From Chloroflexota bacterium (GTDB taxonomy: Bacteria > Chloroflexota > UBA11872 > VXNJ01), in the NCBI GenBank assembly GCA_965261345.1, contig OZ253449.1, positions 1,536,001 to 1,600,000 of the forward strand: 64,000 nt of DNA, given 5' to 3'. Shown one piece after another: positions 47,654 to 64,000 of the stretch (within the stretch, counting starts at the first letter, position 1; each line of letters opens with the position of its first letter). The translations under genes and the position numbers were made by a program. The notes below the pieces were generated by a model. It worked only from the letters and a program-made list of their open reading frames with translations, was not told the DNA's origin and ran no database searches.

Positions 47654-49324
47654 TTGACTACATTCGCGCAGGCGACGAAGCTATGGCTGATCGCAATCCT
47701 TTTTGTGGCTCTCTCGCTGATTTTGGCAACCGGGGCGAATGCCAATAGCCCCGACTTTGCAATCGCTGGCGGTTGGTTTTTTACTCAAGGCGGAGGCGAC
47801 ACCGCCCGCTCCGACGATGGATTCGCCGTAATTGATGACGAGGGCGCAAAGTTCTGGACCGCGTTTCAAGCCAGTGGCGGCGTCGGGGCCGTTGGCTATC
47901 CTATTTCAGTCCGATTCCAATGGGATGGATTTGTAACCCAGGTCATGCAAAAAGCCGTTTTTCAATGGCGGCCGGAAACTGACAGCGTCGCCTTTGTAAA
48001 CGTTTTTGACGATCTCTCACGCCATGGCTTCGACGACCAACTGGCCACCCTCCTGGTCCCTGAACCAGAAGTGTTTAACGACGAGACTGGTCTCAGCTTC
48101 GGACAAATAATTGCCAAGCGCACGGCGCTTCTGGAACCCGAACCGGCGTTATTGGCCGTCTACCAAGCCGCCGCAGATCCGTTGCGCAATTACGGCTTGC
48201 CGCAATCCAGCGTTAGGCAATACGACGGATTGCGGGCAATCCGCCTGCAACGGGTGGTTCTACAAATCTGGACTAGCGACTTCCCCTGGGCCCAAGCGGG
48301 AACCGTAACCATTGCCAACGGTGGGGACCTGGCAAAGCAGCTGGGCCTATTTAGGGCGACAGGATCCGCGTTCGTGCCCATGTCGCCGCCGGGCTCGGAA
48401 CCAGGACTTGTGGAACCGAGCGAGCTAACAACTGCGCGGGAACTTTTGTCCGAAATCGCGATTGAAGCCGAGCGCGCTGACGGGTATAGCCGCGCCGACT
48501 GGCGCCACTGGAGCGACTTCGACGGCGATGGCTGCAATACCCGCTGCGAGGTACTAGCAGACGAGCGACGCCCAAATGGCGACTGGTATTCGGCCTTCGA
48601 CGGACAGGTAACTGACAATCCCTCGACCTTTGATATTGACCACATTGTTCCACTGGCGGAAGCACACGAATCAGGCGGCTGGGCCTGGGACGAAGAAACC
48701 CGGGAACTTTTTGCCAACGATCAGGAATACGCACATTCATTAATTGCCGTTTCGGCCAGCTCCAACCGCAGCAAGGGCAAGCGCGACCCAGCCGAATGGC
48801 TACCCTCAGCCGAAGGAGCCCATTGCTTCTATGCCGAGGCCTGGGTTGTCGTCAAATGGCGTTGGCAGCTCGGCGTTGACCAAACCGAACACGACGCATT
48901 GAAAGGGATCCTGGACGATTGCCCAGCAACTTCGCTAAGCGAAATTGCACCGCCGCAAGCGAGCCCCGCCACTTCGACCCCCACCATGGATCCCGCCACT
49001 TCGACCGGCACTATGAACCCCGGGACCACGTCGGCGCAAGTACAGATCGAATATTGCGATGCAAGCGCCGAACTGGTCCAGATCAGCGGTCCGGCAGGCT
49101 TTGATCTGGGTGGTTGGCAGATCAGCGACCAAGGTCCGCAGTTTAGCCACACGTTCAGTCCCGGAACGAATCTGCGCGACGACGGCAAGATATTGATCGC
49201 GTCCGGCCGCGCTACGGGCGATCTAAGACCCTGGGGCGGCCGCTTCGTCTGGAACAACGACGGCGATGTGGCCACACTCACCGACCCAACGGGTCGGGTG
49301 GTTGCCACGCGCGATTGCAGCTAA
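47654..49324 (+). CDS. Secreted HNH (DUF1524-like) nuclease with N-terminal surface domain and lamin-tail domain
   Basis: Signal peptide; FW..FQ..GG...GYPIS..F; DGDGCNTR, DIDHIVPLAEA, SNRSKG..DP.EW.P; DL.GW.I.D...VWNNDGD. Confidence 0.82.
   Translation: MTTFAQATKLWLIAILFVALSLILATGANANSPDFAIAGGWFFTQGGGDTARSDDGFAVIDDEGAKFWTAFQASGGVGAVGYPISVRFQWDGFVTQVMQKAVFQWRPETDSVAFVNVFDDLSRHGFDDQLATLLVPEPEVFNDETGLSFGQIIAKRTALLEPEPALLAVYQAAADPLRNYGLPQSSVRQYDGLRAIRLQRVVLQIWTSDFPWAQAGTVTIANGGDLAKQLGLFRATGSAFVPMSPPGSEPGLVEPSELTTARELLSEIAIEAERADGYSRADWRHWSDFDGDGCNTRCEVLADERRPNGDWYSAFDGQVTDNPSTFDIDHIVPLAEAHESGGWAWDEETRELFANDQEYAHSLIAVSASSNRSKGKRDPAEWLPSAEGAHCFYAEAWVVVKWRWQLGVDQTEHDALKGILDDCPATSLSEIAPPQASPATSTPTMDPATSTGTMNPGTTSAQVQIEYCDASAELVQISGPAGFDLGGWQISDQGPQFSHTFSPGTNLRDDGKILIASGRATGDLRPWGGRFVWNNDGDVATLTDPTGRVVATRDCS
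48965..49033 (+). repeat. Degenerate 27-bp tandem repeat encoding the linker PATSTPTMD/PATSTGTMN/PGTTS
   Basis: CCCGCCACTTCGACC occurs twice 27 bp apart, with a third degenerate copy. Confidence 0.7.
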
Positions 49325-49795: not shown

Positions 49796-51722
49796 AGAAC
49801 AGCCAGTCCAACTGGTACCAGGACAAGGAGTGAAAGTCTCCCGTGATGAAGGGCGAGAGCCAGCCCACATCAGCCCGCGAGCCGTGCGCGGGTAACCGCG
49901 AGGTTACCCGTGAAGCGTCGGTAGCGGGGCATGCGAGCCGGGCTATCGAGCGCCGAAATACCGGTTCGGAGCGCCGAGACCGTGATTCTGGTCGAAGGCA
50001 ACACCGACAGCGGCGATATTGGCAAGTCGCTGATCTGGGCTCCGCGGCGTCGAAGAACTCGCGCACGTATGCACGTCCATCCCCGGGACCTGGGAGACCT
50101 GTCCAGCGCCCCAACGCACTCGCAGCATTGGGGCCGCATCGGGAAGGAAGGAGTTTCGCAATCCGATGATGCACGATGTGCAGAAGTCTGATGCGGCCAT
50201 AGTACCTGCGAAGGCGGCGAACAATGGGGCGTAAAACCCCGGCGGAGCCGCCGGAGGAAAGGGCCGCAAGCAAGAGGAACGCGCCAGGCACCGGCACGGA
50301 CTACACCCAGGGGTGGGTTCCCGTGTCACCCGGAGCCGAACGCGTACGGCAACACGCCAAAGAGAACCCAGAGGGAAAACTCACCGCGCTCTTACACCAC
50401 ATAGACCTTGACGCGCTAAGGGATGCGTTCTACGGGCTAAAACCCAATGCCGCTCCCGGCGCCGACGGGATCACGTGGAGGATGTACGAGGAAAACCTGG
50501 AAGAGAAACTTCTCGACCTTAAAGACCGCGTGCACAAAGGAGCATACCGAGCGACCCCCGTCCTGCGGGTAGCGATACCCAAACCGGACGGCGGGAAGCG
50601 AGCGCTTGGAATCGCATCCATAGAGGACAAGATCCTGCAGCGGGCGGTGTGTCAACAGATCCTTGACCCGATCTATGAATCGGAGTTCGCCGGGTTCGCA
50701 TACGGGTTCCGGCCAAAAAGATCAGCGCACGACGCGCTGGACGCCCTGGCCTACGCCATCGAACGGAGAAAAGTCAACTGGATTCTTGACGCCGACATAA
50801 AAGGCTTCTTCGACCATCTCGACCGCGAGCGACTCATCTCGTTCCTGGGAGAGCGAATCGGAGACAACCGCGTCCTGCGCCTAATCCGCAAATGGCTGAG
50901 CACCGGAGTAATGGAAGCCGGAGAACTATCCGACAGCGTGCAGGGAACACCGCAAGGGGCGCCGATATCGCCGCTGCTTGCCAACGTGTACCTGCACAAA
51001 GTCCTGGACTCATGGTTTGCCAAGGAATGGCGACCCAAAAGCGCCAGCGGCGAGGTCTACATCGTCAGGTATGCCGATGACTTCGTCCTGGGATTTGAGT
51101 ACCGCAGCGATGCGGTCAGATTTGCAAAGGATTTGCGAGACAGGCTAGAAGAGTACGGATTAGAGCTTGCAGCCCACAAGACCCGCCTGATCGAGTTCGG
51201 CCGATACGCGATCGAGAATCGCCGCCAGCGTAACGACAGCCGTCCGGAGACTTTTGACTTCCTCGGCCTAACGCATTACTGCCGGACGATGAGCAACGGA
51301 AAGTTCGGACTGGGACGCAAGCCCATCGCCAAGCGCGTCAGACGCACCCTGAAGGCGATCAAAGAGAAGCTGCGTATGCGCATGCACGACGATCCCGCGC
51401 AGACCGGGCAATGGCTCGGGATGGTGCTGAACGGATGGCTCAACTATTACGCCGTCCCCACCAGTTATCCGTCCCTTTGTCGATTCCGCCAACGGCTGCA
51501 ATGGCATTGGAAACGCACCCTGCAGCGTCGCTCGGACAAAGATCGCACCACCTGGGAGCGCATCAGCCAGCTTTGCGACCAACTCTGGCCGCCCGTCCAA
51601 ATCCGCCACCCATGGCCCGCCCAGCGCTTTGCCGTTAGATACTCAAGCTAGGAGCCCGGTGCGTTAACGCGCACGCCGGGATCTGTACGGGGGGCATCGG
51701 GCAACCGGTGTTCCTACCGTGA
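49796..51722 (+). mobile_element. Group II intron (ribozyme + RT); boundaries +/-1 nt
   Basis: Domain V GAGCCCGGTGCG-TTAA-CGCGCACGCCGGGATC and domain VI ending CCTACCGTGA; removal rejoins IS3 orfA in frame. Confidence 0.88.
50224..51651 (+). CDS. ltrA: Group II intron reverse transcriptase/maturase without endonuclease domain
   Basis: AAPGADG, IPKPDGG.R.LGI, YGFRP.RS.H.A, DADI..FFD, GTPQG..ISPLLAN.YL, YADD, FDFLG, GW.NYY. Confidence 0.95.
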   Translation: MGRKTPAEPPEERAASKRNAPGTGTDYTQGWVPVSPGAERVRQHAKENPEGKLTALLHHIDLDALRDAFYGLKPNAAPGADGITWRMYEENLEEKLLDLKDRVHKGAYRATPVLRVAIPKPDGGKRALGIASIEDKILQRAVCQQILDPIYESEFAGFAYGFRPKRSAHDALDALAYAIERRKVNWILDADIKGFFDHLDRERLISFLGERIGDNRVLRLIRKWLSTGVMEAGELSDSVQGTPQGAPISPLLANVYLHKVLDSWFAKEWRPKSASGEVYIVRYADDFVLGFEYRSDAVRFAKDLRDRLEEYGLELAAHKTRLIEFGRYAIENRRQRNDSRPETFDFLGLTHYCRTMSNGKFGLGRKPIAKRVRRTLKAIKEKLRMRMHDDPAQTGQWLGMVLNGWLNYYAVPTSYPSLCRFRQRLQWHWKRTLQRRSDKDRTTWERISQLCDQLWPPVQIRHPWPAQRFAVRYSS

Positions 51723-54418: not shown

Positions 54419-55651
54419 TTGAAAATGATTGGACAGACGAGCCATTACAGTACCCCTGACCATTGGGTTATCTATGAATTCAGTGCGATAGCATCAGCGC
54501 TTATTAAGGCTAAAACTGCTGCCGCTACCCTGAACCGGTTGCCGTACCTGCCGCAATGGATCGAGCAGGCACACGAAGAGCAACTGCGGTTAGAGGCGGC
54601 CGGAACAACTTTGATAGAAGGTGCCGTTTTCTCAGAGCGCGAAAAAGAAGAAGCACTTTCAGCCAATGCCGAGATGAGTAGCGTATTTAATCATTCTCAA
54701 AGGCAATTGAGGGCGGCCGATGCAACCTACCGTTGGATTCGAGAGCAACCAGCGGCGCGAAAAATCGACGCGAGATTCGTATTTGAATTTCACCACCAAC
54801 TTGTAACCGGTTGTGATGACGACCATTGCGAACCTGGCGCGCTGCGACGAACCGGTGCGGAAGCCACTTTTGGAATACCTAGGTGCAGGGGCGCGCGAGG
54901 AGGCGGCGAACTTGCTAACGCATTCGATGGACTAATGACGGCATTCGCTGGCGAGTTTCGACGGCATGATCGCATTGTGCAAGCGATGGCGGCTCACTAC
55001 CATCTCGGTGCCATGCACCCATTTGGCGACGGCAATGGTCGTACCGCGCGGGCATTGGAATCATTCATGCTGCGAGCGGCCGGCGTTAACGAAATGGTGA
55101 TGGTTAGTTTGTCAAATTACTACTACGAGCATGAAAATTCTTACTTTAAATCATTGGATGAATCTCGAAAACAGGGGCACAATCTGACCCCATTTCTCAT
55201 GTTCGCGCTTGACGCGGTTGAATCCCGCTGTAACGCCCTTGCGGATGAAATCGTCATCAACAACAAACGTATCCTCTACCGGGAATTTGCCAGGTCACTT
55301 TTCGGGCGATTACAGAGCCCCCGCCGACGAGCGATCGTTACCCGACAACTGCACATCATTGATGTTCTACTCGGATCCGACAGCATGGAACCCGACGAAT
55401 TGCTCTTAAAAGTCTGGATGCACTATGACGGCTTGAAGCACAAAATACGGGCGTTTGTCAGGGATTTGTCGGGGTTATTAAATCAATTTGCAATCGTGTA
55501 CAGGGATAACCAGTTGTCGGTGGACCTTGACTGGCCACTTAAAACCGCCGGATCGGACCGAATGCAGCAGTACGAACAAATGCCGGCAGCTGCAACCAGC
55601 GCGTTTCCTTCGATGGCGGAACTGTCAAAGTTGTTGGGTCGAAACCGTTGA
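54419..55651 (+). CDS. Fic-family protein
   Basis: TTLIEG, HPFGDGNGRTAR. Confidence 0.9.
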   Translation: MKMIGQTSHYSTPDHWVIYEFSAIASALIKAKTAAATLNRLPYLPQWIEQAHEEQLRLEAAGTTLIEGAVFSEREKEEALSANAEMSSVFNHSQRQLRAADATYRWIREQPAARKIDARFVFEFHHQLVTGCDDDHCEPGALRRTGAEATFGIPRCRGARGGGELANAFDGLMTAFAGEFRRHDRIVQAMAAHYHLGAMHPFGDGNGRTARALESFMLRAAGVNEMVMVSLSNYYYEHENSYFKSLDESRKQGHNLTPFLMFALDAVESRCNALADEIVINNKRILYREFARSLFGRLQSPRRRAIVTRQLHIIDVLLGSDSMEPDELLLKVWMHYDGLKHKIRAFVRDLSGLLNQFAIVYRDNQLSVDLDWPLKTAGSDRMQQYEQMPAAATSAFPSMAELSKLLGRNR

Positions 55652-56095: not shown

Positions 56096-57784
56096 CTACT
56101 CGCCGACGCCATCTGGTTGGTATCCAACCAACCAGGTGCTACCGGCCACGGCAACAAATCGCACGATGGCTTTGTGTCCATCGGCGTCTTGAAGGCCGAT
56201 TGGCTCCCTCAGTTCGAACGGCGCTGGTTGCGATTGGCATTCGTGGATAGCCACGTTTTGTGTGTACAAGTAGGTTCGACCAAGCGGATCCTTGATCGGA
56301 TTGAGCCGGCCTGATATTCCGGGCACCCGCCCTGTGCGGTCGTCAAAGATCACTGATCCTCCACCGGGGCACAGAGCAAGCTGCATCGTTAACGCATATT
56401 CTGACGGTACCCAGTCGAGCTCTACGGCGGCTGCGATCCCGTCGCCGGCTGCGAATACCATCATTTTTTGACCGAGATCGTGAAGTTGCAGGTTCGCCGT
56501 ACCATTACTGTCAGTGATTGCGGATCGGTAGGTTCCGTTCGGAAATAGCGCCGAAATGTGGACACCTGGGGCGGGGGAATTGTCAATCAGGGCCGTGACG
56601 CTTGACCCATCGCCCAGGCTTAGGCTGCGCAACTGGGTCCAGGGGGAGACTTCGACATCGTTGGCGCGGGAAGAAAAATCTCCCCCGTATACGATTGCCG
56701 TTTCAATGTGCTGGGACACGGAACTGAGATGTTGGGATACGCGCCTGACACCGCCAGCGCGGTTAGTAGGTAGGGTGGCGGACGATTTGCACTCGATGAC
56801 CGCCAGGCGATTTGGGTCGTCGATGACAAGATCAGCTTCCGCCCCATTGCTAGCCCGGTAATGGCCAAGGCCTTGTGCCAGGCCACTATTGGTACGGTGC
56901 TTGAGGATCTCGGATACGACCCAAGTCTCAAATAACGGACCCCTGAGCGGGTGCGTTCGCAACTGATCCACGGTCTTGATGCCCAGAAGGTAACAAACCA
57001 AGCCAGTGTCGATGAAATGAAGCTTTGGCATCTTTATTAGTCGTTTTCGGATGTTTGCGTGGTACGCTGACAGCCGATAAGCAATGTAGGCAATCTCTAG
57101 CATGCCGAACCAGGATTTCGCCGTCGGCTGCGTAATTCCGGCGTCGCTGGCCAGAGAGGACAAATTCAATAGTTGCGCTGTCCGACCAGCGCACAGTTGC
57201 ACAAACCGTCGAAAGTCCGATAGATCCCCGATGTTTCTAATTGACCTCACGTCCCGCTCCAAATAGGTGCTGACGTAGGAGCGGTACCAATCGGTCGGAT
57301 CTAGTGATTGGTCAAAGGTTCTCGGGTACCCGCCTGTCAGGATGGATTCGAACATATCCATAGGTGCGAGTCCAAAACGTGTGATTTCGCCGCGCGTTAG
57401 TGGCAGCAACTCGTGTACGGTTGTCCTGCCTGCGAGCGATTGCTGCACCGATTGCAGCAACGCAACGTTGTGCGATCCGGTAAGGACCCATTTCCCGGGT
57501 CGCGGATCCTGGTCAATCGACGGTTGAAGGTACGACAGCAATGCCGGTATGTTTTGCACTTCGTCGATGATCGCCCCGTCGGGGAATTGGGAAAGAAAAC
57601 CGCGAGGATCCGACTCGGCTAGAGCACGAACATCTGGGAATTCGAGATTTGCGTAAGGTAGGTGTGGAAATAATGCTCTGCAAAGGATTGTTTTGCCGCT
57701 TTGCCTTGGACCGGTCAGTGTCAATGTCGAGAATTGGGCCGCAGACTTTAATAGCAACGGTGAAATGTCACGATCGATCAACAA
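56096..57784 (-). CDS. AAA_14 ATPase-DUF4143 protein with extra C-terminal domain
   Basis: GPRQSGKT, IIDEVQ, LTGS, SLAGR, GGYP, YLERDV, PKL.F.DTGL, E.DL...IE.K. Confidence 0.9.
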   Translation of the reverse strand: MLIDRDISPLLLKSAAQFSTLTLTGPRQSGKTILCRALFPHLPYANLEFPDVRALAESDPRGFLSQFPDGAIIDEVQNIPALLSYLQPSIDQDPRPGKWVLTGSHNVALLQSVQQSLAGRTTVHELLPLTRGEITRFGLAPMDMFESILTGGYPRTFDQSLDPTDWYRSYVSTYLERDVRSIRNIGDLSDFRRFVQLCAGRTAQLLNLSSLASDAGITQPTAKSWFGMLEIAYIAYRLSAYHANIRKRLIKMPKLHFIDTGLVCYLLGIKTVDQLRTHPLRGPLFETWVVSEILKHRTNSGLAQGLGHYRASNGAEADLVIDDPNRLAVIECKSSATLPTNRAGGVRRVSQHLSSVSQHIETAIVYGGDFSSRANDVEVSPWTQLRSLSLGDGSSVTALIDNSPAPGVHISALFPNGTYRSAITDSNGTANLQLHDLGQKMMVFAAGDGIAAAVELDWVPSEYALTMQLALCPGGGSVIFDDRTGRVPGISGRLNPIKDPLGRTYLYTQNVAIHECQSQPAPFELREPIGLQDADGHKAIVRFVAVAGSTWLVGYQPDGVGE

Positions 57785-59096: not shown

Positions 59097-60154
59097 TTAC
59101 GCCGCCAGCAGCTTTTCGGCCCGCAGCAGGTTGGATAGCCCGGCCAGCAGCAGCAGGCGCTGGGTGTTCTTGTAGAGCCCGCGGTACCTGACCTTCCCGT
59201 TGCCGAACCAGCACTTGAGATCGTAGAACGGGTGCTCCACCCTGGCGCGCATCGATGACTTCGCCTGCTCGGCTCGCTCCTGGTCAGAATCCTTGTCGAG
59301 GAGTTTGCGCTTCCCCTTGCGCATGGCGATCCTGAACTCGACCTCCTCCTCCGGCAGCCTCTCCTCAATCCCCTGGTAACCGGCGTCTCCCCATACGGTC
59401 TTCTCTTTACCGGTGAGCAGGAATCCGGCCACATTCAGGTCGTGCACGTTGGCCGGGGTGGTGACAAGGGAGTGGACGATTCCCGATCCAGAGTCCACCC
59501 CGACATGGGCCTTCAGGCCGAAGCGCCACTGATTGCCCTTACTTGGCGGAACGCATCTCGGGATCGCGTTTCTTTGCGCGGTTCTTGGTCGAGGACGGCG
59601 CGGCGATGATGGTGGCGTCGACGATGGTTCCCTGCTGCAGCCGCACGCCCTTGGCGGCAAGGTGGTCGATGATGCGCTGGAAGATCTTTGCGGCCAGGCC
59701 GTTCTCCTCCAGGCGGCGACGGAAGTTGAGGATGGTGGTCTCGTCGGGCAACGGTCCATCCAATGCAAAGCCGCAGAATCGGCGCACCGACTCAATGTCG
59801 TAGAGAGCGTCCTCCATCGCTGGATCGGAGAGGTTATGGGTTATCTGCGCCACATGCACGCGCAGCATCTTTTCCAATGTGTAGGGACGGCGGCCGTTGC
59901 CGGCCGTGGGATATACGGGTCCAATCAGATCTTCCAGCTCTGACCAGGGGACCAGGCTGTCAAGGCGGTCAAGGAAGAGTTCGCGCCCGGTCTTGCGCTT
60001 CTTGCTCTCGAATGCGACGTCGGCGAAGGTGCGTTCGGACACGGTCGGGGTTCCAACTCTGCCAGATGTCATGTTCTGATTTTGGATCAGATATCCGATT
60101 CAGCCCAGAGCCGGATAGCCGGCCGGGGTTGGCGGAGACTAATTCAGAGTTGCC
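59097..60154 (-). mobile_element. IS5-family element, frameshifted transposase, one end not found
   Basis: LSDP.MEDAL, PDETTILNFR, VDAT, FG.K.H.GVD, DAGY.G, RA.VEHPF; extra T in AAG-T-AAG near 59540; end GGCAACTCTGAATT at 60154 next to TTAG. Confidence 0.88.
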
Positions 60155-60385
60155 TTAGGATTCCCGCTCAGATTCTCCGGTGATTCTCAGCATTTGCTGG
60201 GCGCGCTCAATTCGCTGACGGAGACTGTCTTGGAACTCGGGATCGCGTTTGCGATTTTCGATGTGCCCCGCAATAGCCATTCGAACAATCTGCACGACCG
60301 GCTTGCCTTCGACAGCCGCGACAGTATCCAATTCTTCCGCTTGCTCGGCCGAGAGGCGGACTGTCATTGCTTTCTGCGGATCCAT
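60155..60385 (-). CDS. Ribbon-helix-helix (CopG-like) regulator
   Basis: AMTVRL......L..VA..EG.....IVR.AI. Confidence 0.75.
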   Translation of the reverse strand: MDPQKAMTVRLSAEQAEELDTVAAVEGKPVVQIVRMAIAGHIENRKRDPEFQDSLRQRIERAQQMLRITGESERES

Positions 60386-60391
60386 GATCGA

Positions 60392-60451
60392 ATTTTCATC
60401 AATGGTTCGATGGTTGTCAAATGTCGGGCGATCATGATGTCTTGGTATACT
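60392..60451. promoter_or_regulatory. Divergent sigma70-type promoters
   Basis: Minus strand: TTGACA-17bp-GAAAAT, 6 nt before the RHH ATG. Plus strand: TGGTATACT extended -10 (60443-60451) before the Ubl gene. Confidence 0.6.
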
Positions 60452-60489
60452 GGTGTCACTGGAGTTTGCCGCGGAGTTAGAAGGAAATC

Positions 60490-60801
60490 ATGACCACGAC
60501 CGAACAACCAGAGGCTACCGGGACGGCCACGCACAACGCGGAAAAACCCGAACCGAAGCTGTTTCATATCCAGATTGACCGTGAGCACTACAAGATCTCT
60601 GAGGAGAAGGTATCTGGCGCTGAGCTCCGTCGCGTGCCCTGTAACCCAATTCCCCCCGACCGCGACATCTTCCAGGTGGTGCCCGGTCACGACGACCGGA
60701 AGATCAAGGACGACGACACAGTAGAGGTCTACGACGGCCTTCGCTTCTTCACCGTGCCCAACACAATCAATCCGGGCGGCTCTACCGCCTGCATAGGCTG
60801 A
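60490..60801 (+). CDS. Multi-ubiquitin-domain Ubl protein
   Basis: AAGGA RBS; F.I.ID...Y......SG.EL...D..I.DD..V....G.RFF, ending NPG-GSTACIG. Confidence 0.82.
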   Translation: MTTTEQPEATGTATHNAEKPEPKLFHIQIDREHYKISEEKVSGAELRRVPCNPIPPDRDIFQVVPGHDDRKIKDDDTVEVYDGLRFFTVPNTINPGGSTACIG

Positions 60802-60814
60802 ACGAGGGCCGATC

Positions 60815-61207
60815 GTGACCCTACCTCAGGCAGACCGTGAATTCCTAGACGGCCTCGACATCGATTACGAAGTTGTCGGTGAATCTGGAATGATCTGTGT
60901 CGTCTTGAAGGGGTGGGAGTTGCCTGCAGGATTTGACCAAGAGATAGCGGATACCTTGATCCGGCTTGCGCCAGGGTACCCAGACATCCCCCCCGACATG
61001 TGGTGGCTCGATCCACCAGCGCGTCTTGCGGGCGGTGTGGATCCTCGCAACACGGGAGTGTATGAGGGATATCTCGGCCGTAAATGGCAGCGCTGGTCCA
61101 GACACCTCAATGCCGGACAGTGGAAGTCCGGTATCGACTGTCTGGAAACCTACGTTGCCCTGATTCGGCAGGAGTTGCAGCGGAGTGTTCCGGCGGGCGT
61201 GCGATGA
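60815..61207 (+). CDS. Prokaryotic E2/UBC-fold protein
   Basis: LP..D.EFL, LP.G, PGYPD.PPDM.W..P, WQRWSRH. Confidence 0.85.
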   Translation: MTLPQADREFLDGLDIDYEVVGESGMICVVLKGWELPAGFDQEIADTLIRLAPGYPDIPPDMWWLDPPARLAGGVDPRNTGVYEGYLGRKWQRWSRHLNAGQWKSGIDCLETYVALIRQELQRSVPAGVR

Positions 61208-62586
61208 CCGTCACACTAGTCATTCCTCAGCCTATTGCTGATGAGCTATATCGGGCGACCACAGCAAAAATGGAAACAGCTGGCGTTCTTTTGGCCCGAT
61301 ATGCGGAAACACCAACAGGGAACATCCGGATGTTGGCGCGCCAAATCCTTTGGGTGAGTGAAGAGGCCTACCAGTTACGAAGCTCGTCGAAGCTGAGCAT
61401 TAGTTCGGAGGGATACGTTTACTCGCTCGCTGCTGCTGAAGCCGACCAGGCCGTGCCCATCTGGGTGCACACACACCCTGGAAGAAAGTCAACACCCACG
61501 CCTAGTAAATGCGACGAGTTTGTTGACAGACAGCTCGCCGACGTGTTCAGGCTCCGGTCAGGGAGTAATTTCTACGGTGCACTAGTACTTGCGATGGCCG
61601 GTAGTTGGCTTAGCTTTAGTGGACACATTGAGTCCCAAGATTTGCGCATCGAGATCGACCGTATCTGGGTAACCGGACGTCGGCTTGTGTTGGCGATCAA
61701 TGCGTCTGCAATATCACGGCCAATATCCAGGGATTTCGATCGCAACATTCGAGCTTTCGGCGGTCAAATTCAGCGAATGCTTGGAGACCTTTGCGTAGCA
61801 GTGGTCGGCTGTGGAGGAACGGGTTCCTCAGTAATCGAACAGCTGGCTCGGCTCGGCGTGCGCAATTTCATCTTGTTTGACCACAAGGCGTTGACGGACA
61901 GCAATGTAACCCGCGTATATGGCTCCAGTCGGTCAGATGTTGGTCGTCCGAAGGTAGACGTCTTGGCGGACCATGTTGCGCGAATCGCGCCGGATGCCCA
62001 AGTAGTAACTCAAAAGGCTGCGATCAATGAAGAGTCGGCCGCGAGGCAATTGCTAGATGCAGACGTGGTTTTTGGCTGCACCGATGACAACTCAGGTCGC
62101 CTGGTGTTGTCTCGTGTTGCCTCCTACCTAATGACGCCAATAATTGACTGCGGCGTATTGCTGAGTAGCGGAGACGGTGGTGGGATCGAAGGAATCGATG
62201 GCCGCGTCACATTGCTAGGGCCAGGCATGTCCTGCTTGGTTTGCCGGGGGAGGATCGATTTCCTCCGTGCGGCCGCCGAATCCCTCCCGACCGCAGAGCG
62301 CCAACTTCGCATTGATGAGGGGTATGCGCCTGCGCTTGTTGGCATCGAACCTGCAGTCGTTACGTTTACCACTAGCGTTGCGTCGGCAGCAGTAAGTGAA
62401 CTACTCGAACGGCTGATTCACTTCGGGCCCGAACCTGCCCCGTCTGAGATTCTGCTCCGCATGCACGAACGCGAAATATCCACTAACGACCAACAGCCTC
62501 TAGCTGGACACTATTGCCATCCAGATGCCGGCAAGCTTGGTTTTGGAAATGCCGAGCCTTTCCTGGAGCAGGCGTGGGACCGGTAA
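61204..62586 (+). CDS. JAB peptidase-ThiF/E1 fusion
   Basis: ATGA-coupled start; ETAGV...HTHP...PS..D JAB motif; VVGCGGTGS, SN..R, GCTD...GR, CLVC, EGY. Confidence 0.88.
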   Translation: MTVTLVIPQPIADELYRATTAKMETAGVLLARYAETPTGNIRMLARQILWVSEEAYQLRSSSKLSISSEGYVYSLAAAEADQAVPIWVHTHPGRKSTPTPSKCDEFVDRQLADVFRLRSGSNFYGALVLAMAGSWLSFSGHIESQDLRIEIDRIWVTGRRLVLAINASAISRPISRDFDRNIRAFGGQIQRMLGDLCVAVVGCGGTGSSVIEQLARLGVRNFILFDHKALTDSNVTRVYGSSRSDVGRPKVDVLADHVARIAPDAQVVTQKAAINEESAARQLLDADVVFGCTDDNSGRLVLSRVASYLMTPIIDCGVLLSSGDGGGIEGIDGRVTLLGPGMSCLVCRGRIDFLRAAAESLPTAERQLRIDEGYAPALVGIEPAVVTFTTSVASAAVSELLERLIHFGPEPAPSEILLRMHEREISTNDQQPLAGHYCHPDAGKLGFGNAEPFLEQAWDR

Positions 62587-62933
62587 AGATATTCGTTGCT
62601 TGGTGGCATTCGCTGCCGCTCCCATGGCGGGTATGGCGCATTGTTGGCCGAGTCGGTGACGGAGATGCAATTCCGCTCTGGTTGCCATATGGAGGTGTAG
62701 TTCTAGTTGGACGGATGCGCCGGCCGACATGGGCCGCTCTCGATTGTCCGTGCCGCACAGGCCATAGGCTCCTTCTAAACCTGGACGGGGATCGGCACCC
62801 TTCGTGGACAATCGGCTCGCTAACGCCACTGACAATCATGCCAAGCATCGATTCAGTGACCCCTGAGCGTCGCTGCGCATTGACTCACTGTTTTTGTAAC
62901 CCAAACAGGGCCGTTGCCTCACTAGATTTGTAA
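62574..62933 (+). pseudogene. DUF6527-like protein, C-terminus replaced by IS sequence
   Basis: W...DCPC..GH...LNL....P.W.....LT..PSI......C, then IS end at 62875. Confidence 0.7.
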
Positions 62934-64000
62934 CCCAAATCCACAGGGAGGCAACCGATGCGAGGAAAGAAGCTGAGCCGGGCGGTGCGGAAGGAGCTGC
63001 TAGCGGCCTTAAGGGGCCGCTATGCGAGGGCGTCCAAGATCGACAAGGGCGGAATCCTTAACGAGTTCGTGGCTCTATCTGGCCACAACCGCAAATACGC
63101 AACCCGATTGCTGGGCAATGCTGCAAGCCCTGCTCCGGCACCGCCCACCAAGTCCTCATACCGCATCTACGACGAGGCCGTCAGGGACTCCTTGATCATC
63201 CTTAAGGGAAGCGGCCGATCGGATCTGCGGCAAACGGTTGCAAGCGATATTGCCCAGCCTGATCGAATCACTGGAAGGGCATGGCCACCTGCAGCTTGAT
63301 CTGGACCTTAAAAGCAAGCTCTTCGCGATCAGCCCGGCATCGATCGATCGCCTCCTCAAACCAGTCCGCAAGACCGCCGGCAGCAGTCGACGGCGTCACC
63401 CCCGCCGCCGCAACCGTCATCACGCCAAGGTCCCGATCCGGACGTTTGCCGATTGGCATGGCCCCGACCCCGGCTACCTGGAAATAGATCTGGTGGCCCA
63501 CTGTGGTGGCAACATGGCCGGGAGCTTCATCCAGTCCCTGTCGGTTACCGATGTGTGCTCGGGCTGGGTGGAGGCAGTCCCGCTGCTGGCAAGGGAGCAG
63601 ACGCTTGTGACCGAGGCGCTTGAGGTTATAGGCGGGCGGGTACCGGTGCCAATACTTGGAATCGATACTGACAACGACAGCGCCTTTATCTCCCAGACCC
63701 TTATCGATTACTGCCAAGAGCGTGAAATCGAGTTCACCCGCTCACGCGCCTACCGCTCCAACGATCAGGCCTACATCGAACAGAAGAACGGCGCCGTAAT
63801 CAGACGCTTTGCCGGTTACGAGCGCTTTGCCGGCCTCATCGCCGGACAGACCCTGGCCCGACTCTTTGCCTTAGTTGGTCTCTACACCAATTTCTTCCAA
63901 CCGTCTTTCAAACTGATCTCCAAGCAGCGCTATGGAGCCAGAACCCAAAAGCGCTACGACCGTCCGCTAACTCCCTGCCAGCGCCTGCTCGATCACCCCG
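62875..64000 (+). mobile_element. ISNCY-like integrase-core transposase element, frameshifted, runs off the window
   Basis: TG end with two (C/G)TTG.CTCACT...TTTGTAACCC repeats; ORF from 62958 RY..A....K..IL.EF; frameshift near 63203; ICGKRL, EIDLVAHCG, DTDNDS.F, RSR.Y..ND.A.IEQKN. Confidence 0.88.

Follow-up and report, generated by a model that had tools for sequence, protein, structure and literature searches.

The window analysed here, by which we mean the whole 64,000-nt stretch of contig OZ253449.1 (positions 1,536,001 to 1,600,000) of a Chloroflexota bacterium, carries four co-directional open reading frames (ORFs) on the plus strand at 60490-62933, which overlap or nearly abut. We found that these genes very probably constitute a Type I Bub (bacterial ubiquitination-like) operon, a class formerly named '6E.1/DUF6527', of the subtype in which the ubiquitin-like protein (Ubl) and the E2 are encoded separately. 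The best overall explanation of the locus, to which we assign a probability of roughly 0.85 on the basis of sequence and structure-database comparison, is an unfused Type I Bub operon with a Citrobacter-like mechanism, under the control of a divergently encoded ribbon-helix-helix (RHH) protein, in which the last gene, bubE, has been cut by an insertion sequence (IS). The class, the chemistry and the unfused layout are already in print, and the additions made by this locus are modest, namely a conserved module of RHH gene and promoter heptads and a natural truncation of bubE.

The first-pass annotation of this DNA had described four tightly linked Ubl, E2, JAB-E1 and DUF6527 genes, and all four ORFs were indeed present with Pfam support. 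The extent that it had given, 60490..62933, was right at its start and too long at its end, as 62933 is the stop of a chimeric ORF and native bubE ends at 62874. Pfam scans were made of the window ORFs, and the neighbours were also scanned with PADLOC. All positions are those of the window, and the features are as follows.

60155-60385, minus strand: predicted RHH gene (CopG/DUF6290-like), 76 aa, divergent from the bub operon, putative repressor gene
60386-60489: putative divergent promoter/operator region, with a TTGTCAA box, two heptads and AAGGA
60490-60801, plus strand: bubA (Ubl), 103 aa; Multi_ubiq PF14452, E 7.3e-8, 32.9 bits against a cut-off of 24.5
60815-61207, plus strand: bubB (E2), 130 aa, GTG start, in a frame different from that of bubA; Prok-E2_E PF14462, E 8.1e-35
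61204-62586, plus strand: bubCD (JAB-E1), a JAB/JAMM peptidase domain joined to an E1 adenylation domain, 460 aa; ThiF PF00899, E 4.9e-33
62574-62874, plus strand: bubE (DUF6527), native part; PF20137, E 7.2e-8, 32.7 bits against a cut-off of 23.6
62875-64000, plus strand: left part of the IS; the whole IS is ~1.71 kb and reaches ~64583, beyond the window end

Gene layout and candidate active sites

The bubA and bubB genes are separated by 13 nt, bubB and bubCD overlap by 4 nt, and bubCD overlaps bubE, the last gene of the operon, by 13 nt. The bubCD frame is open from 61084, and the likely start is the ATG at 61204, which overlaps the bubB stop as ATGA and gives a protein of 460 aa; this agrees in length with the homologs listed at 64-73% identity (458-463 aa) among 2359 proteins with E <= 1e-10. 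The bubE ORF is open over 62514-62933, with GTG 62574 as its likely start.

A contig search with an alignment of E1 homologs as query returned 189 relatives, of which 80 were kept and fetched, while the same kind of search with the single E1 protein as query found no relative. Ubl, E2 and E1 genes were present in the common order in 76 of the 80 fetched loci, and a DUF6527 gene was located downstream in 78 of them. Because the same order recurs in related loci, the arrangement is not due to chance. At two loci, L045 (6614-6988) and L073 (6632-7006), the highest-scoring E2 match is not upstream of the E1 gene but ~1.2 kb behind it (~3 kb beyond the Ubl gene) and may be a second E2 or belong to a second operon. 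The operons of L020, where BubE is matched from query residue 52 onward only, and of L033, where the E1 match begins at residue 128 and in another frame, may carry frameshifts or disruptions. Among the PADLOC and NCBIfam models, none matched the Ubl, the E2 or the DUF6527 protein. An assignment to Cap2/Cap3 of the cyclic oligonucleotide-based anti-phage signalling system (CBASS) was tried and rejected: the PADLOC 'E1-E2' models match only the adenylation region (e.g. residues 232-357 on model positions 299-430 of 579), and the scanned neighbours included no member of a cyclase family.

The closest characterised system in the literature extracts used here is the Type I Bub operon of Citrobacter sp. 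RHBSTW-00271 (Ye, Gong, Chambers, Corbett; bioRxiv 10.1101/2024.11.21.623953; PDB 9ea4, 9eae). In the text of the preprint, Type I is defined by fusion of the Ubl to the E2 (BubAB), and such a fusion is not found in the window, where bubA and bubB lie in different frames with stops and the 13-nt gap between them. The same separation was found in most relatives, a stop standing between Ubl and E2 in 74 of the 76 loci with Ubl, E2 and E1 and the two being fused only in L086 and L087; L045 and L073 count among the 74 by virtue of their Ubl stop, and E2 adjacency was not assessed in these two. A frameshifted, broken BubAB fusion was ruled out, since the split is shared by 74/76 relatives and the tails that follow the conserved Gly of the Ubl differ in length. 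Of the 139 rows given to Type I in Table S1 of Ye et al. (bioRxiv 10.1101/2024.11.21.623953), 106 are fused, 2 lack a Ubl and 31 are unfused. Separate Ubl and E2 genes therefore do not bar membership in Type I, as the table itself files 31 unfused operons there, and the unfused layout is already catalogued in print. One of these rows, Bradyrhizobium sp. Ghvi, is identical with our locus L089 and shows the same layout of Ubl, E2, deubiquitinase-E1 (DUB-E1) and DUF6527; its E1 is 52% identical to the window E1, its bubE is intact whereas that of the window is truncated, and Table S1 names no regulator for it, although an RHH homolog was found upstream in the present analysis.

BubA comprises one beta-grasp domain and ends in ...TINPG (Gly96) followed by the 7-aa tail GSTACIG. 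Residues I93, P95 and G96 were conserved in 76/76 relatives and N94 in 75/76, positions 97-98 vary, and the tails after the conserved Gly range from 0 to 29 aa (71 loci measured; L081, L082 and L089, in which the tblastn match crossed a stop, were left out). Since I-N-P-G is conserved and the tails behind it are variable, the mature C-terminus of BubA is most likely Gly96, with the tail as the predicted substrate of the JAB domain. A sequence search of the Ubl against PDB gave no significant match (a 'Multi-ubiquitin domain-containing protein', 9d5b, at E 0.9).

The best PDB match of BubB was Citrobacter BubB (9eae, E 3.9e-7). The WQRWSRH motif pointed out in the first-pass annotation is located at E2 residues 91-97 and aligns with 'YQRWSRH', 'QRWSRH' being identical, and 'PDMWW' of the window aligns with 'LDMFY', which holds D299 of the paper. 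Residues S95 and H97 were present in 77/77 relatives and D61 in 74/77, and we propose Asp61, Ser95 and His97 as the putative active site. For BubCD the best PDB match was Citrobacter BubCD (9ea4, E 6.4e-28), over E1 residues 193-411. The protein contains GCGGTGS at 202-208, a putative zinc site (C344/C347/H436/C438) and the crossover-loop Tyr374; the CLVC...EGY pattern noticed earlier corresponds to C344, C347 and Y374, with EGY 24 residues after CLVC and no Cys in segment 348-383. In the alignment 'DEGYAP' of the window faces 'ERGYIT' of BubCD, whose Tyr falls at chain position 372 by count of the printed alignment, and we take this residue to be Tyr370 of the paper, as the crystallised chain carries two additional residues at its N-terminus. 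Y374 was found in 80/80 relatives, whereas any Cys in the loop segment was found in 1/80. In the JAB domain, E24 was conserved in 77/80 relatives and H89, H91, S101 and D104 in 79/80 each.

For Citrobacter, the extracts of Ye et al. used here (bioRxiv 10.1101/2024.11.21.623953) describe a BubCD crossover loop without Cys, report that Y370F and S333A/H335A abolish conjugation both in vitro and in cells, and show that the JAB domain cleaves after the conserved Gly of the Ubl. The earlier proposals of a Bub-type system and of Tyr and Ser as candidate nucleophiles are supported because of this homology and the conservation in relatives: the top-ranking PDB entries come from Citrobacter (BubCD and BubB), Y374 aligns with BubCD Tyr370, and S95/H97 align with BubB S333/H335. 

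Several observations weigh on the other side of this assignment. The oxyester chemistry would follow from the resemblance to a single characterised system, to which the E1 matches significantly over residues 193-411 only; the JAB part scores 7.2 bits against BubCD, and the Prok-JAB match, at 19.2 bits, falls under its cut-off of 25. Moreover, the clade has Cys residues with no counterpart in Citrobacter at the aligned positions, namely E1 C344 and C347 (80/80) and E2 C28 (74/77), and E1 C438, also in 80/80, lies beyond the printed BubCD alignment. One could therefore suppose that a thioester chemistry runs through the clade Cys residues, C344/C347 beside the crossover loop and C28 of the E2, rather than through Tyr374 and Ser95, and the near-invariance of these residues, together with their absence from Citrobacter BubCD and BubB, speaks for it. 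Nevertheless, C344/C347 together with the invariant H436/C438 resemble a structural zinc site, presumably the one at the base of the crossover loop in ThiF, MoeB and UBA5-type E1s. C28 belongs to the N-terminal portion of the E2 and is distant in sequence from the canonical E2 Cys position, where the invariant S95 stands. Further, Y374 and S95/H97 are themselves invariant and align with the residues whose mutation abolishes conjugation in Citrobacter. We regard a thioester route as very improbable, and the oxyester route through Tyr374 and Ser95 is retained below.

Compared feature by feature, the window and Citrobacter Bub share the fusion of JAB to E1, a crossover loop that has a Tyr and no Cys, the Asp/Ser/His set of the E2 with its identical 'QRWSRH', a Ubl with a conserved C-terminal Gly, which in the window would have to be exposed by trimming, and a DUF6527 gene in last position. 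They differ in that Citrobacter has a Ubl of three beta-grasp domains fused to the E2, whereas the window has a separate single-domain Ubl with a 7-aa tail; in that the E1s of the window clade carry a CxxC...HxC motif of which Citrobacter lacks the CxxC part; and in that BubE of the window is truncated, unlike that of Citrobacter. Sequence identity between the two systems is low. Bil (bacterial ISG15-like) systems likewise combine a Ubl, an E2, a JAB protein and an E1 for bacterial conjugation. However, their separate JAB, E1 with tandem adenylation and Cys domain, and Cys-E2 were not found in the window, which has a JAB fused to a single adenylation domain, a Prok-E2_E protein with Ser, and a DUF6527 gene. 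The comparison with Bil and Bub in profile and structure databases that had been proposed as a check thus came out for Bub, in the Pfam families as well as in the Citrobacter PDB matches. The first-pass annotation had also suspected an anti-phage role; according to the section of PMC13373217 used here, such a role has not been demonstrated for any Bub operon.

Truncation of bubE by an insertion sequence

When a query running from 62850 into the next ORFs was compared with the 2.39-Mb genome, 18 matches were obtained, and the near-full copies started at query position 25-26, which corresponds to window 62874/62875. Residues 1-100 of bubE and the first base of codon 101 are native, agreement with the family extending to R100; the first 59 IS bases, 62875-62933, provide a chimeric tail, ALTHCFCNPNRAVASLDL, and a stop at 62931-62933. 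Residues C58, C60, H64 and Ser91 are retained, while the invariant His102 of the family (equivalent to Citrobacter H102) is replaced by IS sequence, so that an intact Ser-His dyad with zinc ligands is not found in the window protein. The PF20137 match spans model positions 2-51 of 63. The BubE proteins of relatives read '...PSID.ITPERRC-HF.(V/I)R.G.I.W...' with ~20 further residues, and most are 111-140 aa in total (78 ORFs found), the exception being one of 90 aa on a short contig (L051). An AlphaFold2 model of full-length BubE from L028 (predicted local distance difference test score, pLDDT, 86.7) has 8 strands, of which the last two (100-106 and 109-112) are the part lost in the window.

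In the parts of Ye et al. used here (bioRxiv 10.1101/2024.11.21.623953), DUF6527 (BubE) is described as a Ser-His protease of weak activity which takes conjugates off again. Its S92A and H102A mutants are reported to have lost cleavage, and co-expressed BubE nearly eliminates conjugates, which either mutation restores. Because the IS removed His102 and the last two strands, BubE of the window is most likely inactive. What can be said for residual function is that the IS encodes a His105, four residues after Cys101, which MAFFT placed on the family His with a 3-residue gap, and activity of the chimeric protein through this residue is formally possible. The DNA shows that His105 is IS sequence, and the count of invariant residues wrongly takes the window as conserved at the family His. 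The chimeric bubE-IS ORF at 62574-62933, 119 aa long, should accordingly not be annotated as an intact DUF6527 protein.

The 3' end of bubE was found neither directly behind the IS nor behind an inverted IS end fragment ~3.4 kb further on, and a genome-wide search with C-terminal pieces of 75 relatives as queries did not find it either. One candidate piece at genome position 1505363 (E 0.002) was rejected, as it lies inside an unrelated 367-aa ORF. The truncated bubE is the only DUF6527 match in the genome.

The IS has a frameshifted two-frame transposase with an rve PF00665 match and a 51-nt terminal repeat, and at least 9 long copies are present in the genome at 86-100% identity, the full copies being ~1.71 kb; listed copies of 1.6-1.7 kb have 89-99.7% identity, and several copies abut other repeats. 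The copy at the locus is 99.7% identical to another genomic copy, which suggests a recent insertion. Behind this copy come an IS3-like element and, in inverted orientation, a piece of the left end of the IS itself. No target-site duplication was recognisable at the IS ends, the right end of which abuts another element.

Short-read contigs from two runs of one sample, which is probably the source, covered 60100-62902 with 0 differences and ended 28 nt inside the IS, short of the 31-nt threshold for bridging the junction. An uninterrupted bubE was not found in these contigs, which drop rare variants, and a run from another study contained IS sequence only.

The divergent RHH gene and the shared intergenic region

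The RHH gene very probably belongs to the Bub system as its fifth gene. In 62 of 76 loci a divergent homolog, with 53-76% identity to the window protein, was located no more than 400 nt from the Ubl match, and the gene beyond the RHH gene differs between loci. The Pfam scores of the window protein fall below cut-off (DUF6290 18.1 bits, RHH_1 16.6 bits), and four relatives reach the DUF6290 cut-off. Its AlphaFold2 monomer model (pLDDT 86) shows an extended N-terminus and helices at 13-26, 30-46 and 49-75, and the top Foldseek PDB matches were RHH proteins, namely the DNA-binding domain of CopA_SO (6iya), CopG, Arc, PutA and ParG, with probabilities of at most 0.99 and root-mean-square deviations of ~1 A over 40-43 residues.

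From the window and 57 relatives we took the 110 nt behind the RHH start codon, as read on the operon strand, and aligned them. The TTGTCAA box (window 60414-60420) was exact in 46/57 relatives, and two or more TGGTATC-like heptads with at most one mismatch were present in 39/57, as compared with 0.7% of shuffles; of 57 spacings between successive heptads, 45 were 8 nt. The heptads of the window are TGGTATA (60443-60449) and TGGTGTC (60451-60457), likewise 8 nt apart, and a Shine-Dalgarno-like AAGGA precedes the bubA ATG. On the minus strand the box reads as TTGACA, followed after 17 nt by GAAAAT, which ends 7 nt before the RHH ATG, and the box may serve an RHH promoter. A sigma-70 consensus scan returned 3 promoter-like sites where 1.6 +/- 1.1 would be expected, an excess without significance on its own.

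MetJ, an RHH repressor, binds 8-bp met boxes. With the RHH repressors CopG, Arc and MetJ the window shares the predicted fold and the tandem promoter repeats of 8-nt period, without significant sequence similarity. We favour, with some reservation, the view that the RHH protein represses the operon and that the heptads are its operator. The doubts concern both protein and site: the Foldseek matches had E values of at least 0.087, each window heptad is 1 mismatch off the consensus, a third unit upstream is degenerate, and the protein resembles orphan antitoxins of RelB/CopG type (NCBIfam 20.5 bits against a cut-off of 50; E 4.1e-4). A profile of the RHH protein searched against PDB likewise gave a best match, CopG-family 6iya, at E 0.059, which is not significant.

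Other regulators of Bub operons have been described, and they are frequent without being obligatory. CapW, CapH with CapP, and CapK with CapS are placed just upstream of the Bub promoter in the section of PMC13373217 used here, and the RHH gene holds this place in the window. Their folds differ from RHH, being WYL with a helix-turn-helix (HTH), HTH with an M78 peptidase, and STAS with a winged HTH plus a kinase, respectively. A published operon with the same four-gene order, described as laterally transferred, has an adjacent HTH-Xre/DUF955 pair (CapH/CapP-like) and not an RHH gene. In the Bub literature searched an RHH regulator was not mentioned, and the words 'ribbon', 'RHH' and 'CopG' did not occur in the main text of the Bub preprints, Ye et al. 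having been searched as the 2024 preprint.

There are 14 loci without an RHH gene. Six of them (L036, L043, L061, L083, L085, L088) have an upstream Peptidase_M78 gene, four of the six together with an HTH gene and hence CapP/CapH-like; L047 has a GHKL-kinase-like gene, two have other HTH genes, and five have nothing recognisable. Conversely, no Peptidase_M78 gene was found among the RHH-bearing loci scanned (all loci up to L060; from L061 on, the RHH-less loci together with L063 and L064). Near the window operon, no M78, WYL or STAS/kinase gene was found among the ORFs scanned from 45.7 kb to the operon and over 5 kb downstream, where upstream of 56 kb only ORFs of at least 110 aa were included.

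Alternatively, the RHH gene could be an orphan antitoxin or an unrelated neighbour of the Bub operon, which would agree with the RelB-family match below cut-off and the CopA_SO antitoxin among the structural matches, as well as with three relatives (L038, L048, L060) in which the RHH gene has a Fic gene on its own strand downstream of it. We consider this unlikely, as the gene keeps the same divergent position in 62/76 loci of many phyla, next to differing genes on its far side. The homologs are as similar to the window protein as the operon proteins are to theirs, and the two transcription units share an intergenic region with conserved repeats. The RHH-less loci, among which CapP-like genes (six loci) or a kinase-like gene (one locus) stand upstream instead, argue in the same direction. 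We retain the RHH protein as the candidate repressor. A broader proposal is more tentative and we put it forward as a conjecture: that the unfused Type I clade is governed by an undescribed ~70-aa divergent RHH repressor acting on 8-nt-spaced TGGTATC repeats over a near-palindromic TTGTCAA/TTGACAA -35 box, a module interchangeable with CapH+CapP, and that the present genome is a natural bubE-null which carries the conjugation arm without the deconjugase.

Genomic setting, proposed pathway and meaning

The operon was probably acquired horizontally into a mobile or defence island, because 40 genomes of the same genus, family or order yielded no close E1 homolog (the best, a partial match, at 34% identity), the related loci are spread over many phyla, and the neighbours are of mobile and defence type. 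Among the homologs listed, the closest E1 overall is 73% identical. Upstream, the neighbours include a PIN protein and integrase fragments, and further a 556-aa protein with a GmrSD_C endonuclease domain and a lamin-tail domain (LTD) at 47654-49324 (plus), a reverse transcriptase at 50224-51651 (plus; RVT_1 E 2.4e-36) and a Fic/DOC protein at 54419-55651 (plus), a few kb from the operon. Fic genes less than 2 kb upstream of the Bub operon were also seen in four of the scanned relatives (L038, L048, L054, L060). A DUF4143/AAA_14 ATPase at 56096-57784 (minus) matches the PADLOC candidate defence family PDC-S01 at E 2.6e-100 and has an extra C-terminal ~200 aa with no Pfam match; relative L015 likewise has such a gene upstream of its Bub operon. 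An IS5-type transposase (DUF772 and DDE_Tnp_1; 59097-60072, minus), split by a frameshift into two overlapping ORFs, lies directly behind the RHH gene and thereby marks the upstream edge of the remaining Bub module. Downstream of the operon, the IS and the IS3-like element are succeeded by a higBA-like pair and then by housekeeping genes. The HigB_toxin gene of the pair (E 1.4e-23) lies behind the IS nest just beyond the window, at genome 1602321-1602854 on the minus strand (L009 4321-4854), and its partner of 78 aa has no Pfam match.

Given the broken bubE and the presence of IS elements to either side, the operon as a whole may be silent or in decay, which tells against a working pathway. 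In this case the operon would be a remnant, of which the part left after the IS hit in bubE is unexpressed or unselected, so that nothing is conjugated. Such a history would fit a bubE whose 3' end was not found in the genome, flanks of IS5-like, integrase-fragment, IS and IS3-like sequences, and, behind the IS, a nest of elements in place of a simple insertion with bubE resuming behind it. On the other hand, the RHH gene, bubA, bubB and bubCD are full length, free of internal stops and unchanged at all positions that relatives keep invariant; the start/stop overlaps and the motifs of the promoter region are intact; and the near-identity of the IS to its other copy suggests that the event was recent. 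We judge a decayed operon to be rather unlikely, although it deserves more weight than an unrelated RHH gene or a thioester route.

The steps of the proposed pathway follow the Citrobacter work by homology. The divergent RHH protein would bind the 8-nt-spaced TGGTATC-like repeats and repress the shared promoter region. Once the operon is expressed, the JAB domain of BubCD would trim the 7-residue tail of BubA and expose Gly96, the E1 domain would adenylate Gly96, and Tyr374 of the crossover loop would accept the Ubl as an oxyester. The Ubl would then move to Ser95 of BubB, aided by His97 and Asp61, and be joined to target lysines. In intact systems BubE would remove the Ubl again, whereas here the pathway, if expressed, would run without a dedicated deconjugase. 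With BubE most likely inactive, and in view of the co-expression result of Ye et al., unchecked conjugation would be expected when the operon is on.

The locus adds nothing on Bub chemistry. What it contributes is the observation that the compact subtype, with a single-domain Ubl and a separate E2, is widely distributed and occurs in many uncultured phyla. The natural allele without the catalytic His of BubE bears on how hosts tolerate unchecked conjugation of a Ubl, and the candidate repressor with its putative operator would offer a handle for asking what turns Bub operons on.

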